A DNA stretch of 51,361 bases from Chloroflexota bacterium (lineage in GTDB: Bacteria; Chloroflexota; Limnocylindria; Limnocylindrales; CSP1-4). The notes under the pieces are model-generated. The model did no database searches and was not told where the DNA came from. It saw only the letters and a program-made list of their open reading frames with translations. The DNA lies in the NCBI GenBank assembly GCA_040882345.1, contig JBBEBL010000263.1, positions 2,264 through 53,624 on the forward strand, written 5' to 3'. Positions 1 to 23,311 of the stretch are shown in pieces. Every line of letters starts with the position of its first letter. Position 1 is the stretch's first letter. A program made the translations under genes and the position numbers.

Positions 1-1092
1 CGTGGCGGGGATGGCCGGTGGCGGCGCGGGATCCGCGGCCGGCGGGGCCGGGGCCGGTGCCGCGAAAAGGGCAAGCTCGAGTTGGAGCCGCAGGCCGCCG
101 ATGCCGGCCCGGTCGGGATCGATCGCGACGAGGCGACGGGCGACGGTGGCCAGCTGCGCTCCATGGGCGGTGTCGCCGCCGGCGGCCGCGACGACGAGCC
201 GGGCTCGGACGGCGTCCACGACCTGGTCGAGCAGCGCCCGCGGGTCGCGTCCACGTTCCTCGAGGCGGTCCAGGATCCCGATCCCGGTGGTGGCATCGCC
301 GGTCGCCATGGCATCCAGGAACCCCTCGACGGCCGCCGCGTCGGCCAACCCGAGCAGTTCCCGTACGGCGGACTCGGTGATCGGTCCGTCCGGCGTCGAG
401 GTCGAGAGCAACTGGTCCAGGATCGACTCCGCGTCGCGCATGCCGCCGGCGGCCAGCCGAGCGACGAGGGTCACGGCCTCGTCCTCCGCCCTTCGGCTTT
501 CCGCAGCGAGGATGCGGCGCAGCTTGCCCTCGATCTCCGGGACCGTCAGGCGCCGGACGTCATAGCGCTGGAGCCGCGACAGGATCGCCGGCGGGAAGCC
601 GGAGGGCTCCGTGGAGGCGAACATGAAGACGACGAAGTCGGGCGGCTCCTCCAGCGACTTCAGCAGCGCGTTCCAGGCATCCTTGGTGATCTGGTGCGCC
701 TCGTCCAGGATGTACACCTTGCGGCGGAGGTGGCCGGGCGGATACGCGAGTCGCTCCCGGAGCTCACGGACCTCGTTGATCCCGCGGTTGGACGCGGCAT
801 CGATCTCCAGGACGTCCAGGGTGGTGCCCTCACGGATCGCGACGCACGCGGCGCAAACATCGCACGGGTCGCCGTCGCGGAGGTCCGTGCAATTGACCGC
901 CTTGGCCACGATCCTCGCGAGTGACGTCTTGCCCGTACCGCGCGGGCCGACGAACAGGAGGGCGTGCGATACGCGGTCCGTCCGGACGGCGTTACGCAGG
1001 GTCTCGACGACGGCTTCCTGCCCGACGATCTGGCTGAACGTCTGGGCGCGCCAACGTCGATAGAGCGCCTGGTGTGGACTGGTCGTCGTCAC
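1..1092 (-). CDS. dnaX: DNA polymerase III subunit gamma/tau, N-terminal 364 codons (gene continues beyond window start)
   Basis: Absent from the ORF track because it has no stop in the window. My reverse-strand translation from GTG at 1092 reads VTTTSPHQALYRRWRAQTFSQIVGQEAVVETLRNAV..LFVGPRGTGKTSLARI (Walker A), CDVCAACVAI (Zn module), YILDEAHQIT and SRLQRYDVRR. A GGAGGAGG sequence lies immediately upstream. Confidence 0.9.
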   Translation of the reverse strand, partial: MTTTSPHQALYRRWRAQTFSQIVGQEAVVETLRNAVRTDRVSHALLFVGPRGTGKTSLARIVAKAVNCTDLRDGDPCDVCAACVAIREGTTLDVLEIDAASNRGINEVRELRERLAYPPGHLRRKVYILDEAHQITKDAWNALLKSLEEPPDFVVFMFASTEPSGFPPAILSRLQRYDVRRLTVPEIEGKLRRILAAESRRAEDEAVTLVARLAAGGMRDAESILDQLLSTSTPDGPITESAVRELLGLADAAAVEGFLDAMATGDATTGIGILDRLEERGRDPRALLDQVVDAVRARLVVAAAGGDTAHGAQLATVARRLVAIDPDRAGIGGLRLQLELALFAAPAPAPPAADPAPPPAIPAT

Positions 1093-1114: not shown

Positions 1115-1405
1115 GCGAGGGCGAAGTGCCGTGCACCCTCCGTCGATCGTCCGTCACCCGTGCCCACCGTGACGGGCGGCTCGGACCAGGCCGTTCCGCG
1201 GCACCCGACGATGGTCGCTTAGTGCTGCTTCCTTCCGGACCTGACACGGTTCGCGGTTCGCCGCTGCGCGGGACCCGGTCCTCAACGTCGCACCATCGGG
1301 CGGCATCCGGGGACAGAGACCTCGAGAGGGGATTCAGCCCTGCTGGAGCGGATTGCAGGCTACAGGGCACCGCTAGTTCCCCGCCTAGCACGGCCTCGGA
1401 AGGAT
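1115..1405 (-). ncRNA. ffs: Signal recognition particle RNA, long (Bacillus-type, Alu domain plus S domain)
   Basis: The reverse strand contains the universal domain IV motif GUCAGGUCCGGAAGGAAGCAGC (complement of 1223-1248). The 5' part, GUGCUAGGCGGGGAACUAGCGGUGCCCUGUAGCCUGCAAUCCGCUCCAGCAGGGCUGAAUCCCCUCUCGAGGU, resembles the B. subtilis scRNA Alu domain as I recall it. The 5' and 3' ends pair (CCGUGC/GCACGG). It lies directly upstream of dnaX, as in Firmicutes. Ends are approximate (about +/-10 nt). Confidence 0.85.
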
Positions 1406-1576: not shown

Positions 1577-1664
1577 TGGCGGAGAGGGCGGGATTCGAAC
1601 CCGCGACGGGTTGCCCCGAACCGCATTTCCAGTGCGGCGCCATAGTCCACTAGGCGACCTCTCC
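1577..1664 (-). tRNA. tRNA-Ser (anticodon GGA), CCA encoded
   Basis: Reverse complement is GGAGAGGTCGCCTAGTGGACTATGGCGCCGCACTGGAAATGCGG..long variable arm..GGGTTCGAATCCCGCCCTCTCCGCCA. Anticodon stem is CCGCA/TGCGG and the loop is CU-GGA-AA. Confidence 0.92.
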
Positions 1665-1717: not shown

Positions 1718-1803
<86 letters not shown>

Positions 1804-1871: not shown

Positions 1872-2312
1872 TCAGCCGGCGGCCACGGGGGCGGCCAGCG
1901 CCTCTGCCTCGTCCCGGCGGATCCCGCTGACGACCTTGATCCGACGCGGCAATGCCGGATGCTGCGCCAGCTGGATGACCGAGCCCGCGGCCCCGTCGAG
2001 ATCGTTGGGAACGGCGTAGACCAGGGCCTCCACGTCACTCTCGAGAAGGGCCCCGACGCACATCACGCACGGCTCGTGGGTAGTGAAGATCGTCGCGTCC
2101 GCGAGCCGCACCCGACCGAGTCGGCGGGCCGCCTCACGGAGGGCGAGGACCACCGCGTGGGCGGTCGGGTCACCGGTAGCCTCGACCCGGTCGTGGGCCC
2201 GCGCGACCATCGCCTCGTCCACGACGACGACGGCGGCGATCGGACGCTCGCCATGGTCCATGGCGGACTGGGCCTCTGCCAGCGCCTCTCCCATGTACAG
2301 CTCGTAGTGCAT
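1872..2312 (-). CDS. tadA: tRNA adenosine(34) deaminase (TadA/CDA-fold) homologue with a non-canonical active site (HAV instead of HAE)
   Basis: 146 aa. The Zn-ligand motifs are present: DPTAHAVVLALRE and HEPCVMCVGA (PCxxC). Length and position next to the SRP RNA and dnaX are typical of tadA. Codon 54 (complement 2151-2153, GTG) is Val where the family has the catalytic Glu. A TAGCAT box at 2320-2325 lies 7 nt upstream of the ATG. Confidence 0.8.
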   Translation of the reverse strand: MHYELYMGEALAEAQSAMDHGERPIAAVVVVDEAMVARAHDRVEATGDPTAHAVVLALREAARRLGRVRLADATIFTTHEPCVMCVGALLESDVEALVYAVPNDLDGAAGSVIQLAQHPALPRRIKVVSGIRRDEAEALAAPVAAG

Positions 2313-2375: not shown

Positions 2376-3560
2376 ATGACCACATCCAAGCGGATCGCGA
2401 TCCTGACCGGAGGTGGCGACGTCCCCGGTCTCAACGCCGTCATCAAGAGCGTCGTCTATCGAGCGACGGAGGCCGGCTATGTCGTCCTGGGGTTGCGCCG
2501 CGGCTGGGAGGGCCTGACCCACGTCCAGCCCGCACTCCCCGACGGTGGCGGCACGGGTTACCTGCGGCCACTGGACCGGGTCGGCACGCGGACCATCGAC
2601 CGGACGGGCGGCACCGTGCTGCACACGTCGCGGACGAACCCGCGGCGGATGCGCGCCGGTGGGCTACCGCCGTGGATGTCCGAGCAGGACGCCGCCCGCT
2701 ACGTCACGGACGACGGGGTCTACGACCTGACGCCGCTGGTGCTCGACAACCTCTCGGCGCTGGAGGTCGACGTGCTGGTCACGATCGGCGGGGACGACAC
2801 GTTGTCGTACTCGCAGGTGCTGGCCGATGCCGGCGTCGCGCTGATGGCCATCCCCAAGACGATGGACAACGACGTCCAGGGGACCGAGTACTGCATCGGC
2901 TTCTCGACGGCGATCACCCGGGCCAAGGAGGCGATCAATCGCCAGCGGACCACGCTTGGGTCGCACGAGCGGATCGGCGTCTTCCGGATCTTCGGCCGCG
3001 ACGCCGGGTTCTCCGCGTTGTACACGGCGTACGTCACGTCCGGGCGGTGCGTCATCCCGGAGGCGCCATACGACCTGGAAGCGCTGGCCGGATTGATGGC
3101 CGCTGACCACGCCGCCAACCCGAGTCACTACGCCTTCGTGATCACCGCGGAAGGCGCCATCTGGCAGGGCGCCCAGATGGCGGACAAGGGCGAGCCGGAC
3201 GCGTTCGGCCATCGCCACAAGGTCAACGTCGGTGAGGCGCTGGCGGAGGAGCTCAAGCGGCGGACCGGCATCGAAACGCTGGCGTCGGAGCTGACCTACG
3301 ACCTTCGCTCGGGTGAGCCCGACTCGATCGACTCCATGGTCGCGACGACGTTCGCGAACGTCGCGATGGACCTGATCGACAGCGGCGTCACCGGACGCAT
3401 GGTGGCCATCCAGGATGGGAAGTACGCGCACGCCGCACTCCCGGATCCGGCGCTCGGGCCGCGCAAGGTGGACGTCCCGGCGATGTACAACGCGACCCGC
3501 TTCCGGCCTCGCTACGACGGCAAGCTGGGCGACCCGATGCTGCTGGTCGGCCTGGACTGA
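2376..3560 (+). CDS. 6-phosphofructokinase (PfkA family); signature residues are of the PPi-dependent type
   Basis: The start is placed at MTTSKRIAILTGGGDVPGLNAVIKSV. The longer track ORF (1515..) runs through two tRNA genes and tadA and is spurious. Motifs seen: TIGGDDTLSY and IPKTMDNDV. Confidence 0.88.
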   Translation: MTTSKRIAILTGGGDVPGLNAVIKSVVYRATEAGYVVLGLRRGWEGLTHVQPALPDGGGTGYLRPLDRVGTRTIDRTGGTVLHTSRTNPRRMRAGGLPPWMSEQDAARYVTDDGVYDLTPLVLDNLSALEVDVLVTIGGDDTLSYSQVLADAGVALMAIPKTMDNDVQGTEYCIGFSTAITRAKEAINRQRTTLGSHERIGVFRIFGRDAGFSALYTAYVTSGRCVIPEAPYDLEALAGLMAADHAANPSHYAFVITAEGAIWQGAQMADKGEPDAFGHRHKVNVGEALAEELKRRTGIETLASELTYDLRSGEPDSIDSMVATTFANVAMDLIDSGVTGRMVAIQDGKYAHAALPDPALGPRKVDVPAMYNATRFRPRYDGKLGDPMLLVGLD

Positions 3561-5727: not shown

Positions 5728-5803
5728 TGGCGCGCCCGGCGAGACTCGAACTCACGACCTTTAGGTCCGCAACCTAACGCTCTATCCACTGAGCTACGGG
5801 CGC
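5728..5803 (-). tRNA. tRNA-Arg with anticodon GCG (G34, not the usual bacterial A34/ACG), CCA encoded
   Basis: Reverse complement is GCGCCCG-TA-GCTC-AGTGGATA-GAGC-G-TTAGG-TTGCGGA-CCTAA-AGGTC-GTGAG-TTCGAGT-CTCGC-CGGGCGC-G-CCA. The 7-nt anticodon loop is UU-GCG-GA. The D-loop (GGATAGAG) is Arg-like and the overall layout resembles E. coli tRNA-Arg(ACG). Confidence 0.85.
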
Positions 5804-5835: not shown

Positions 5836-5927
5836 TGGCGGAGAGGGAGGGATTCGAACCCTCGAAGCAGGTTACCCCACTTGGCGGTTTAGCAAACCGC
5901 TGCACTAGACCTCTATGCGACCTCTCC
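5836..5927 (-). tRNA. tRNA-Ser (anticodon GCU), CCA encoded
   Basis: Reverse complement is GGAGAGGTCGCATAGAGGTCTAGTGCAGCGGTTTGCTAAACCGC..long variable arm..GGGTTCGAATCCCTCCCTCTCCGCCA. Anticodon loop is UU-GCU-AA. Confidence 0.9.
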
Positions 5928-21890: not shown

Positions 21891-21978
21891 TGGCGGAGAG
21901 GGTGGGATTCGAACCCACGGGATCTTGCGACCCTGCGCTTTTCAAGAGCGCCGCCATCGACCGCTCGGCCACCTCTCC
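21891..21978 (-). tRNA. tRNA-Ser (anticodon UGA), CCA encoded
   Basis: Reverse complement is GGAGAGGTGGCCGAGCGGTCGATGGCGGCGCTCTTGAAAAGCGC..GGGTTCGAATCCCACCCTCTCCGCCA. Anticodon loop is CU-UGA-AA. It lies 28 nt downstream of serS. Confidence 0.92.
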
Positions 21979-22006: not shown

Positions 22007-23311
22007 TCAGTCCCGCGCCGCGATGACCTCACGGCCGAGATACGGCCGCAGCACCTCCGGCACGATCACGGTCCCGTCCGGCTGCTGGTAGGTCTCCAGG
22101 ATGGCGGCGACGACCCGGGCAAGCGCGAGGCCGGATCCGTTGAGCGTGTGCACGAGCTCCGGTTTCGCGCCCGCTTCCGGTCGATAGCGGATGGCCATCC
22201 GACGGGCCTGGTAGTCGTGGAAGTTCGAACACGAACTGACCTCCAGCCAGCGCTCCACGCCGGGTGACCAGACCTCGAGGTCGTACTTGCGCGCCTGGAC
22301 GAAACCCATCTCCCGGGTGCTCATGAGCAGGACGCGGTACGCGAGGCCCAGGCGCCGGAGGAGGATCTCCGCTCGCTCGGTCATCCACTCCAGCGCGGCC
22401 GGACTGTCCTCCGGCCGCTCGAACAGGACCATCTCCACCTTGTCGAACTGGTGGACGCGCAGGATCCCGCGGGTGTCCTTGCCGGCGGCCCCGGCCTCGC
22501 GGCGGAAGCATGGGGAGTAGGCGGCATACCGGATGGGCAGGTCCGCGGCGTCCAGGATCTCGTCGCGGTGGAGGTTCGTGACCGGCACCTCTGCCGTCGG
22601 GACGAGGTACAGCTCGTCACGCGTCACGACGTACATCTGGTCTTCCTTGTCCGGGATCTGCCCGGTCCCGGTCGCGCTGGCCGCATTGACCACGGCCGGC
22701 GGCCACACCTCGGTGAACCCGTGCTCGCGGGTGTGGACATCCAGGAACCAGCTGATGAGGCCGCGCTGGAGGGCCGACCCCGCGCCCTTGTAGACCGGGA
22801 ATCCCGAGCCGGCGATCTTGGCGCCCCGGGCGTTGTCGATGATGTCCAGCGCCTCGCCGATCTCCCAGTGGGGCCGGCGCTCCCATCCGGCCTCCGCGCG
22901 TTCCAGTCGCGTCCCCCAGGTCCGGACGGTGACGTTGGCCTCCTCGCCCCCGACCGGCACGTCGGGATCGGCGGGATTGGGGATGCGCAGGAGCAGGTCG
23001 TCCAGCTCAGACTCCACCGTCGCGAGCTCGGCGTCCAGCGCGGTGATGCGTTCGCCGGCGGCCACGGAGGCGGCCTTCAATTCTGCCACCTCCGGTCCGT
23101 CCGGCCTCGCGCCACCCTTGATCGCCTCGCCGATCCGCTTGCTGGCGGCGTTGCGCTCCGCCTTGAGACGGTCGCTCTCACCCAGGAGGGCGCGGCGGCG
23201 CTCGTCGAGCCCCAGGGCGCGATCCACGAGCGCCGGGTCCTCACCCTTGTCCCTCGCACCGCGGCGGATGACCTCGGGCTCCTCCCGGAGCCGTGCCAGG
23301 CCGACGCTCAT
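22007..23311 (-). CDS. serS: Seryl-tRNA synthetase
   Basis: N-terminal coiled-coil arm, then FRREAGAAGKDTRGILRVHQFDKVE..GSGLALARV. 434 aa. Confidence 0.93.
   Translation of the reverse strand: MSVGLARLREEPEVIRRGARDKGEDPALVDRALGLDERRRALLGESDRLKAERNAASKRIGEAIKGGARPDGPEVAELKAASVAAGERITALDAELATVESELDDLLLRIPNPADPDVPVGGEEANVTVRTWGTRLERAEAGWERRPHWEIGEALDIIDNARGAKIAGSGFPVYKGAGSALQRGLISWFLDVHTREHGFTEVWPPAVVNAASATGTGQIPDKEDQMYVVTRDELYLVPTAEVPVTNLHRDEILDAADLPIRYAAYSPCFRREAGAAGKDTRGILRVHQFDKVEMVLFERPEDSPAALEWMTERAEILLRRLGLAYRVLLMSTREMGFVQARKYDLEVWSPGVERWLEVSSCSNFHDYQARRMAIRYRPEAGAKPELVHTLNGSGLALARVVAAILETYQQPDGTVIVPEVLRPYLGREVIAARD

Follow-up and report, generated by a model that had tools for sequence, protein, structure and literature searches.

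We describe the only tadA-like gene in a 51,361-nucleotide (nt) stretch of DNA from a Chloroflexota bacterium (assembly GCA_040882345.1, contig JBBEBL010000263.1, positions 2,264 to 53,624; hereafter the window). The gene encodes a protein that carries His-Ala-Val (HAV) in place of the His-Ala-Glu (HAE) motif of the tRNA adenosine deaminase TadA. Its open reading frame (ORF) begins with ATG, and the product is 146 amino acids (aa) long. The gene and the positions that bear on its activity are as follows.

1872..2312, minus strand: tadA orthologue, 146-aa TadA-fold protein with HAV instead of HAE (ORF and translation, Pfam, NCBIfam, alignment to PDB entries, AlphaFold2 (AF2), Foldseek)
2244-2246, minus strand: codon 23, a position that co-varies with residue 41
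2190..2192, minus strand: codon 41, GAC, Asp at the Asn site (N46 in E. coli, N42 in S. aureus; sequence, alignment)
2157-2159, minus strand: His52, CAC, zinc ligand (direct sequence read)
2154-2156, minus strand: Ala53, GCG (direct sequence read)
2151..2153, minus strand: codon 54, GTG, Val at the site of the catalytic proton-shuttle Glu (E59 in E. coli, E55 in S. aureus; direct read, alignment)
2067-2075, minus strand: Glu80-Pro81-Cys82 (direct sequence read)
2058..2078, minus strand: H79-E80-P81-C82-V83-M84-C85, the EPCxMC zinc-binding motif, kept, with ligands C82 and C85; invariant in the HAV and HAE sets
2058-2060, minus strand: Cys85, TGC (direct sequence read)
1872..1916, minus strand: residues 133-146 and the stop codon, a shortened C-terminus with a short helix (133-140) and a variable tail (AF2 secondary structure)

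As an earlier, sequence-only reading of this DNA had proposed, the codons place valine immediately after His-Ala and leave all three zinc ligands intact. In HMMER alignments with E. coli-derived TadA variants, its best matches among solved structures, Val54 falls exactly on E59, with DPTAHAV standing over DPTAHAE. The ligands His52, Cys82 and Cys85 are invariant in the alignment of the clade, and the protein thus retains the zinc site of the cytidine deaminase (CDA) fold. It matches the Pfam families dCMP_cyt_deam_1 (3.4e-23) and MafB19-deam (1.6e-26), and its top NCBIfam match is the TadA equivalog model NF008113 at 118.6 bits, under the curated cut-off of 150. We rejected an identity as guanine or guanosine deaminase, as dCMP deaminase or ComEB (18.8 bits against the ComEB cut-off of 219) or as RibD (25.2 bits against a cut-off of 156), because the scores lie below that for TadA or below the cut-offs and because the Glu is absent. 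A search of all six-frame ORFs of the window with a hidden Markov model (HMM) of TadA-like proteins returned no second CDA-fold ORF, bearing out the claim that the gene is the only one of its kind there. Scanning the surroundings of the gene revealed no promoters or terminators.

The HAV gene is flanked by the following features.

1..1092, minus strand: 5′ part of dnaX, probably starting with GTG at 1092 and cut off by the window edge at position 1 (N-terminus YRRWRAQTFSQIVGQE...GPRGTGKT)
1129..1393, minus strand: signal recognition particle (SRP) RNA, full length (Bacteria_large_SRP, Rfam RF01854, 165.7 bits)
1577..1664, minus strand: tRNA-Ser(GGA) (ARAGORN, Rfam)
1718..1803, minus strand: tRNA-Ser(CGA), 68 nt past the HAV stop codon and on the same strand (ARAGORN, Rfam)
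2376..3560, plus strand: phosphofructokinase (PFK) gene, divergent, 63 nt from the start of the HAV gene (ORF; Pfam PFK in orthologous loci)

The minus strand therefore reads HAV gene, tRNA-Ser(CGA), tRNA-Ser(GGA), SRP RNA, dnaX. The genomic context was also taken from close relatives on large contigs: tRNA-Ser(CGA) was found in 71 scanned sequences (the window and relatives' loci), and in the relatives' loci L012-L017 dnaX is followed by ybaB and recR. In Bacillus subtilis the corresponding order is yaaJ (tadA), scr, dnaX, yaaK, recR (PMC10454642). Because the ancestral order tadA, ffs, dnaX, ybaB, recR is kept, the HAV gene is, in the class Candidatus Limnocylindria, the vertically inherited orthologue of bacterial tadA. 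The full-length large SRP RNA between tRNA-Ser(GGA) and dnaX gives the classic tadA, ffs, dnaX layout with two tRNA-Ser genes inserted. An HMM search of the relatives' 20-kb loci L012-L017 found no other CDA-fold ORF.

Conservation and remodelling of the HAV protein

A change from GAG to GTG is a single transversion, and the window comes from a metagenome-assembled contig. Both points would fit a sequencing or assembly error, or a decaying pseudogene in which the valine is a one-off and the gene non-functional, and the sequence-only reading had itself raised the single-base caveat. We searched a collection of 5.8 billion proteins and found HAV in 119 of the 120 nearest proteins (78-100% identity), which come from independent samples and, where named, belong to Chloroflexota, Candidatus Limnocylindria or Limnocylindrales. 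A scan of Joint Genome Institute (JGI) metagenomes added 470 relatives, 80 of whose loci were retrieved. Among 83 distinct genes from other samples, codon 54 is GTC in 52, GTG in 30 and ATC in one. Because the codon varies between GTC and GTG, and GTC lies two steps from GAG, valine has been kept through synonymous change. In 87 loci the ORF is uninterrupted and encodes 146-155 aa, and the median ratio of non-synonymous to synonymous substitution (dN/dS; pairwise Nei-Gojobori, 3392 pairs) is 0.15. With the neighbouring PFK gene as the selection control, the medians across the same 49 loci are 0.16 for the HAV gene and 0.20 for PFK. The HAV protein is thus constrained like a housekeeping enzyme. 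Taken together, these data refute an error or a decaying pseudogene and remove the single-base caveat. They also establish the valine as a conserved feature of the lineage, and the purifying selection supports a retained role for the protein.

A search of 1.84 billion cluster representatives gave a similar picture at greater distance. None of the representatives of at least 55% identity that span the motif has the Glu; a single one carries Pro (HAP) and the rest carry Val. A genuine HAE sequence is first met at 49% identity, and we rejected it as a paralogue from the lineage because its relatives are named Syntrophobacteraceae and Desulfoferrobacter; there is accordingly no sign of a lineage-specific duplication into active and inactive copies. 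Three apparent HAE members of the clade were also discarded: P0156 is an assembly chimera in which a RibD-like N-terminus is fused at EPCxMC to the C-terminal half of a clade protein, the N-terminal part of P0167, including its HAE, does not match the clade, and P0159 is a fragment without the motif. Several cluster representatives at about 50% identity (P0156, P0130 and P0167) are assembly or frameshift chimeras that could mislead motif surveys. A scan of reference genomes with peptide patterns of low specificity, which matched high-G+C DNA, yielded only 11 HAE relatives, all distant, and nothing from Limnocylindria.

The change to the protein is wider than the single Glu-to-Val replacement. 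When 60 clade members are aligned with 90 canonical TadAs drawn from many phyla, 37 columns are at least 85% conserved among the canonical proteins. The clade keeps 26 of these, in the zinc site and fold core, and has altered 11 (in E. coli numbering, V28R, V30 to variable, G31A, N46D, E59V, Y81F, R98D and H128R, together with F148, F149 and R153, which are changed or deleted with the absence of the canonical C-terminal FF...R helix). At the catalytic position, Glu is present in 100% of the canonical proteins and Val in 100% of the clade members, leaving the clade with no proton-shuttle residue at this site. At the N3-binding site, Asn (99% of canonical TadAs) is replaced by Asp (100% of the main HAV clade). 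The DPTAHA and EPCxMC motifs are invariant in the clade.

Published structural work, cited here in S. aureus numbering, gives several of these positions a function: E55 is the proton shuttle, N42 hydrogen-bonds N3 of A34, the adenine is stacked by I26 and H53, K106 and N123 serve as readers of the 32-38 pair, and binding of the anticodon stem–loop depends on the αC helix (PMC8216470). In the window protein, E55 corresponds to Val54, N42 to Asp41, I26 to the variable position 25 (the adenine-stacking position, which is I, N or V in the clade), K106 to the variable position 105 (L105 here) and N123 to Pro122, and the helix is truncated. Thus the N3-binding Asn, the readers of the 32-38 pair and the C-terminal RNA-binding helix have been lost along with the Glu. 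The AF2 model nevertheless has the TadA fold (predicted local distance difference test, pLDDT, 94.4), with a short terminal helix (133-140), and Foldseek superposes it on TadA crystal structures with a template modelling (TM) score of 0.92-0.93 and a root-mean-square deviation (rmsd) of about 0.9 Å. The TadA synapomorphies of Iyer et al. 2011 comprise a Glu ahead of strand 1, an Asn within strand 2, the EPC(l)MC motif, a basic residue following strand 4, and a Glu and a Phe in the first C-terminal helix (PMC3239186). These are only partly present: E22 and EPCxMC are kept, N has become D41, the basic residue after strand 4 is variable (L105), and FF is variable.

Within the main clade, the replaced positions R23, A26, D41, F76, D93 and R123 are themselves invariant, and positions 23 and 41, which lie beside the strands that form the pocket, co-vary across the deeper HAV sublineages (R/D, R/D, R/E, N/S, T/R, E/Q and A/A). 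This pattern suggests a remodelled pocket rather than free decay, in which R23 and D41 may be in direct contact and close the former adenine pocket. His79 was considered as a compensating residue and rejected, because the clade has H, Q, R, N, E or L at position 79.

Six further HAV proteins (P0172, P0405, P0407, P0412, P0416 and P0433) have as their nearest relatives the HAE TadAs of Rhodothermus and its allies. Genes of this group lie at the following positions.

L098, 3276-3740: Rhodothermales-like HAV gene
L099, 769-1233: Rhodothermales-like HAV gene
L100, 334-798: Rhodothermales-like HAV gene

The order on the P0172 contig (ADI, HAV gene, Pyr_redox_2) matches that in Rhodothermus marinus (L101: ADI, HEPN/PIN pair, tadA with HAE, Pyr_redox_2). 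The C-terminal helix is retained in this group, as is the N3-binding Asn in four of its six members, and a comparison of two members gives a dN/dS of 0.105. The short contigs that carry them contain no tRNA genes. The group looks like an independent occurrence of the E-to-V change, and perhaps represents an earlier stage of the same change. If it is indeed independent, it would suggest a recurrent route and a moonlighting role latent in ordinary TadA.

Arginine decoding at the locus

The sequence-only reading had connected the valine with a G34 tRNA-Arg gene 3.4 kb away. This gene and the remaining tRNA-Ser genes of the window lie as follows.

5728..5803, minus strand: tRNA-Arg(GCG), CCA encoded, G34 at 5770 (ARAGORN; Rfam, 69.9 bits)
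5836..5927, minus strand: tRNA-Ser(GCU), immediately upstream of tRNA-Arg(GCG), a pairing kept in relatives (ARAGORN, Rfam)
21891-21978, minus strand: tRNA-Ser(UGA), the fourth tRNA-Ser of the window, directly 3′ of the ORF at 22007-23311 (minus strand)

Both ARAGORN and Rfam recover the tRNA-Arg with a GCG anticodon, in the loop U32 U33 G34 C35 G36 G37 A38. ARAGORN was applied to some 540 kb of Limnocylindria DNA, made up of the window and 86 loci from relatives. Each of the 23 loci long enough to include the site (the window and 22 relatives, among L012-L094) has the GCG isoacceptor, usually right after tRNA-Ser(GCU), and no tRNA-Arg(ACG) was found in any of this DNA, which strengthens the proposed connection between the valine and the G34 tRNA. 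Seven variants can be distinguished among the 23 genes; they show compensatory changes in the anticodon and T stems and all share the loop UUGCGGA, and we therefore regard the tRNA as functional. The four tRNA-Ser isoacceptors that ARAGORN finds in the window are GGA, CGA, GCU and UGA, with no AGA. The N-terminus of the ORF at 22007-23311 resembles that of seryl-tRNA synthetase, a putative assignment.

The window has a G+C content of 71.5%, and its arginine codons, counted in a crude ORF set, are CGC 40.6, CGG 26.0, CGA 8.1 and CGU 7.8 per thousand. Since CGA is used about as often as CGU and the tRNA-Arg seen has G34, a U34 tRNA-Arg(UCG) is expected elsewhere in the genome, outside the window. 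The G36-G37 sequence is the usual context for m1G37. E. coli tRNA-Arg(ACG) has C32 and A37, as against U32 and G37 in the window tRNA-Arg(GCG). The acceptor stem of the latter presumably equals that of E. coli tRNA-Arg(CCG), in a comparison with the two E. coli tRNAs that was out of register by one position and does not settle the origin. The gene may derive from a CCG-type gene and not from ACG by a single A34G change.

According to the literature, an A34 and a G34 isoacceptor for the same codon box exclude each other across the phylogeny (PMC8007984). A G34 tRNA-Arg instead of ACG is found in Thermotogae, Spirochaetes, Campylobacter/Helicobacter and some Mollicutes (PMC8007984, PMC3711424, PMC6063277); inosine has been reported lost in Spirochaetes, and tadA lost in some Mollicutes (PMC8007984, PMC6063277, PMC3711424). 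Full-text literature searches returned no report of a G34 tRNA-Arg in Chloroflexota, and no description of a bacterial TadA orthologue without the catalytic Glu.

Fate and possible role of the HAV protein

The explanation that we consider probable is that decoding of CGU and CGC (CGY) switched to a G34 tRNA, and that TadA lost catalysis and anticodon-loop binding and persists as a constrained pseudo-deaminase. The tRNA-Arg that reads CGU and CGC has G34 at the locus and, if this holds genome-wide, there would be no wobble A left to convert. Without a substrate, TadA would have lost the Glu (now Val54), the N3-binding Asn, the readers of the 32-38 pair and, with its C-terminal helix, its clamp on the anticodon loop. 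Judging from the sequence, the structure model and published structures, canonical binding and deamination of an ACG loop should no longer be possible. The protein itself has been kept, with its zinc site and fold preserved, its replaced positions fixed in the main clade and selection as strong as on the neighbouring glycolytic gene. It would now be a pseudo-deaminase that is folded, binds zinc and has a remodelled pocket, and its present job may be non-catalytic binding, with a protein or small ligand more probable as partner than an anticodon loop. The loss of deaminase activity is what we infer from the sequence. Because the protein seems catalytically dead yet is under strong purifying selection, it probably does something other than tRNA editing. 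The sequence-only reading had offered a partner paralogue or a new role as ways out for a TadA with this substitution: the selection data support a retained role, and a partner has been neither found nor excluded.

Three points weigh against this explanation. The scans covered the window and related loci, and a tRNA-Arg(ACG) or an active TadA could lie elsewhere in the genome. The invariant DPTAHA and EPCxMC motifs and the fixed R23, A26, D41, F76, D93 and R123 would be compatible, too, with a newly acquired activity, either catalytic or in ligand binding. Finally, the acidity of the clade (median net charge −6, median isoelectric point (pI) 5.2) argues only weakly against RNA binding, since canonical TadAs vary widely in pI and those of Rhodothermales are acidic too.

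The same features bear on several other explanations. The protein could be the non-catalytic half of a heterodimer, a bacterial analogue of ADAT2/ADAT3 in which an active TadA-type partner encoded elsewhere edits another A34 tRNA or mRNA. It shares three hallmarks of the ADAT3 C-terminal domain (Glu replaced by Val, zinc ligands kept, C-terminal helix shortened), the pockets of TadA dimers are built by both subunits (PMC8216470), and strong purifying selection implies a job. However, neither the window nor the relatives' 20-kb loci contain a second CDA-fold gene, and the clade includes no HAE sequence: the nearest, at 49% identity, is related to the TadA of Syntrophobacteraceae and Desulfoferrobacter, and the apparent HAE members are assembly chimeras. 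The sole CGY-reading tRNA-Arg seen has G34, none of the nearby tRNA-Ser genes (GGA, CGA, GCU, UGA) is AGA, and the protein lacks an ADAT3-like N-terminal tRNA-binding domain, all of which make a heterodimer improbable. It is likewise unlikely that the protein is a neofunctionalized active enzyme in which Asp41 has taken over proton transfer to deaminate or hydrolyse another substrate. In favour of such an enzyme, Asp41 does not vary in the main clade, conservation of the zinc site and pocket motifs is complete, and several of the altered pocket positions have become fixed instead of drifting. Against it, position 41 is D, S, R, Q, A, N or E across the wider HAV sublineages and so offers no conserved catalytic residue, and the paired co-variation of 23 and 41 looks like a structural contact. 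Moreover, the Glu of HxE is a signature of the helix-4 division of the deaminase superfamily that contains TadA, and CDA-type relatives have C[H]AE (PMC3239186).

We also think it quite unlikely that the protein, although dead as an enzyme, still binds tRNA as a chaperone or maturation factor for the tRNA-Arg(GCG) loop or for the co-transcribed tRNA-Ser. Its ancestor bound the anticodon loop, U33, C35 and G36 of the old substrate loop are kept in tRNA-Arg(GCG), and the gene lies 68 nt upstream of two same-strand tRNA-Ser genes with no terminator-like site between. Against this stand the loss of the readers of the 32-38 pair (K106 and N123 in S. aureus) and of the αC helix, the variable adenine-stacking position and the acidity of the clade. 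Finally, the protein may be an independent bacterial ADAT3-like pseudo-deaminase, in which a TadA that died after the A34-to-G34 change was recruited to a new selectable function, either as the non-catalytic subunit of a heteromeric RNA-modifying or RNA-binding complex or as a zinc-dependent sensor or binding protein; we hold this to be a rather slim prospect.

Compared with known systems, a constrained pseudo-deaminase of this kind is closest to bacterial TadA (EC 3.5.4.33; NF008113; 1Z3A, 2B3J, 1WWR and 7CPH), its best match at 36-41% identity. It shares with TadA the fold, the zinc ligands, DPTAHA and EPCxMC, and the chromosomal position upstream of ffs, dnaX, ybaB and recR. Unlike TadA, it has Val for Glu and Asp for Asn, has lost the K106 and N123 equivalents and the FF...R helix, falls short of the family cut-off and neighbours a tRNA-Arg with G34 instead of A34. 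In the C-terminal domain of eukaryotic ADAT3/Tad3 (7NZ7, 7NZ8), Glu is likewise replaced by Val at the identical position with the zinc ligands kept, and the sequence-only reading was right to call this valine the mark of the inactive subunit (PMC8216470). ADAT3 also has a shortened C-terminal helix that is unable to contact the anticodon stem–loop, has lost loop determinants and has a negative surface over the zinc pocket (PMC8216470); the HAV protein too has a short C-terminal helix, has lost anticodon-loop determinants and is acidic overall. By contrast with ADAT3, however, it is a bare 146-aa deaminase domain without the N-terminal ferredoxin-like tRNA-binding domain or the conserved Asp-Pro C-terminal cap (its tail is variable), and no catalytic ADAT2-like partner was found in the window or in L012-L017. 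Because it scores 110 bits to bacterial TadA and 51.7 bits to ADAT3, and sits at the bacterial tadA locus, the resemblance to ADAT3 reflects convergence and not common descent.

The Limnocylindria share their CGY strategy, a G34 tRNA-Arg, with the GCG-decoding bacteria without TadA (Spirochaetes, Thermotogae, Campylobacter/Helicobacter and some Mollicutes). Unlike the GCG-decoding lineages reported to lack tadA, they keep the gene, apparently inactivated and under constraint. The GCG-decoding lineages have low or moderate G+C (PMC3711424), as against 71.5% in the Limnocylindria window. Yokobori et al. 2013 proposed a 'Degenerated TadA*' for some Mollicutes, which would decay by point mutation upon a change in arginine decoding and be partly active on the ACG tRNA and heading for loss (PMC3711424). 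The HAV protein is similar in that TadA degenerates by point mutation along with a change in arginine decoding. However, it differs in lacking the catalytic residue, in lying beside a GCG tRNA and in being under strong purifying selection throughout the class.

The labels that databases give to these proteins matter for how the class is read. JGI/IMG names the HAV proteins (P0016, P0018, P0019 and many more) 'tRNA(adenine34) deaminase', and surveys based on the presence of homologues would therefore wrongly infer inosine-34 (I34) in the class. The NCBI Prokaryotic Genome Annotation Pipeline (PGAP) mostly calls them 'nucleoside deaminase', which fits the sub-threshold NF008113 score.

TadA-made I34 on tRNA-Arg(ACG) is regarded as a near-universal bacterial trait, and to our knowledge the exceptions are lineages that have lost tadA outright. 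Loss of I34 together with a switch to GCG is already known; what is new is a conserved, apparently inactivated tadA beside that switch. An abundant high-G+C class of soil and freshwater bacteria seems to have dropped I34 yet keeps a constrained, apparently catalytically disabled TadA. It would thus provide a natural experiment on the roles of TadA besides A34 deamination, a bacterial counterpart to the way in which the inactive ADAT3 subunit of eukaryotes arose, and a case in which a decoding strategy and a modification enzyme are visibly co-evolving.

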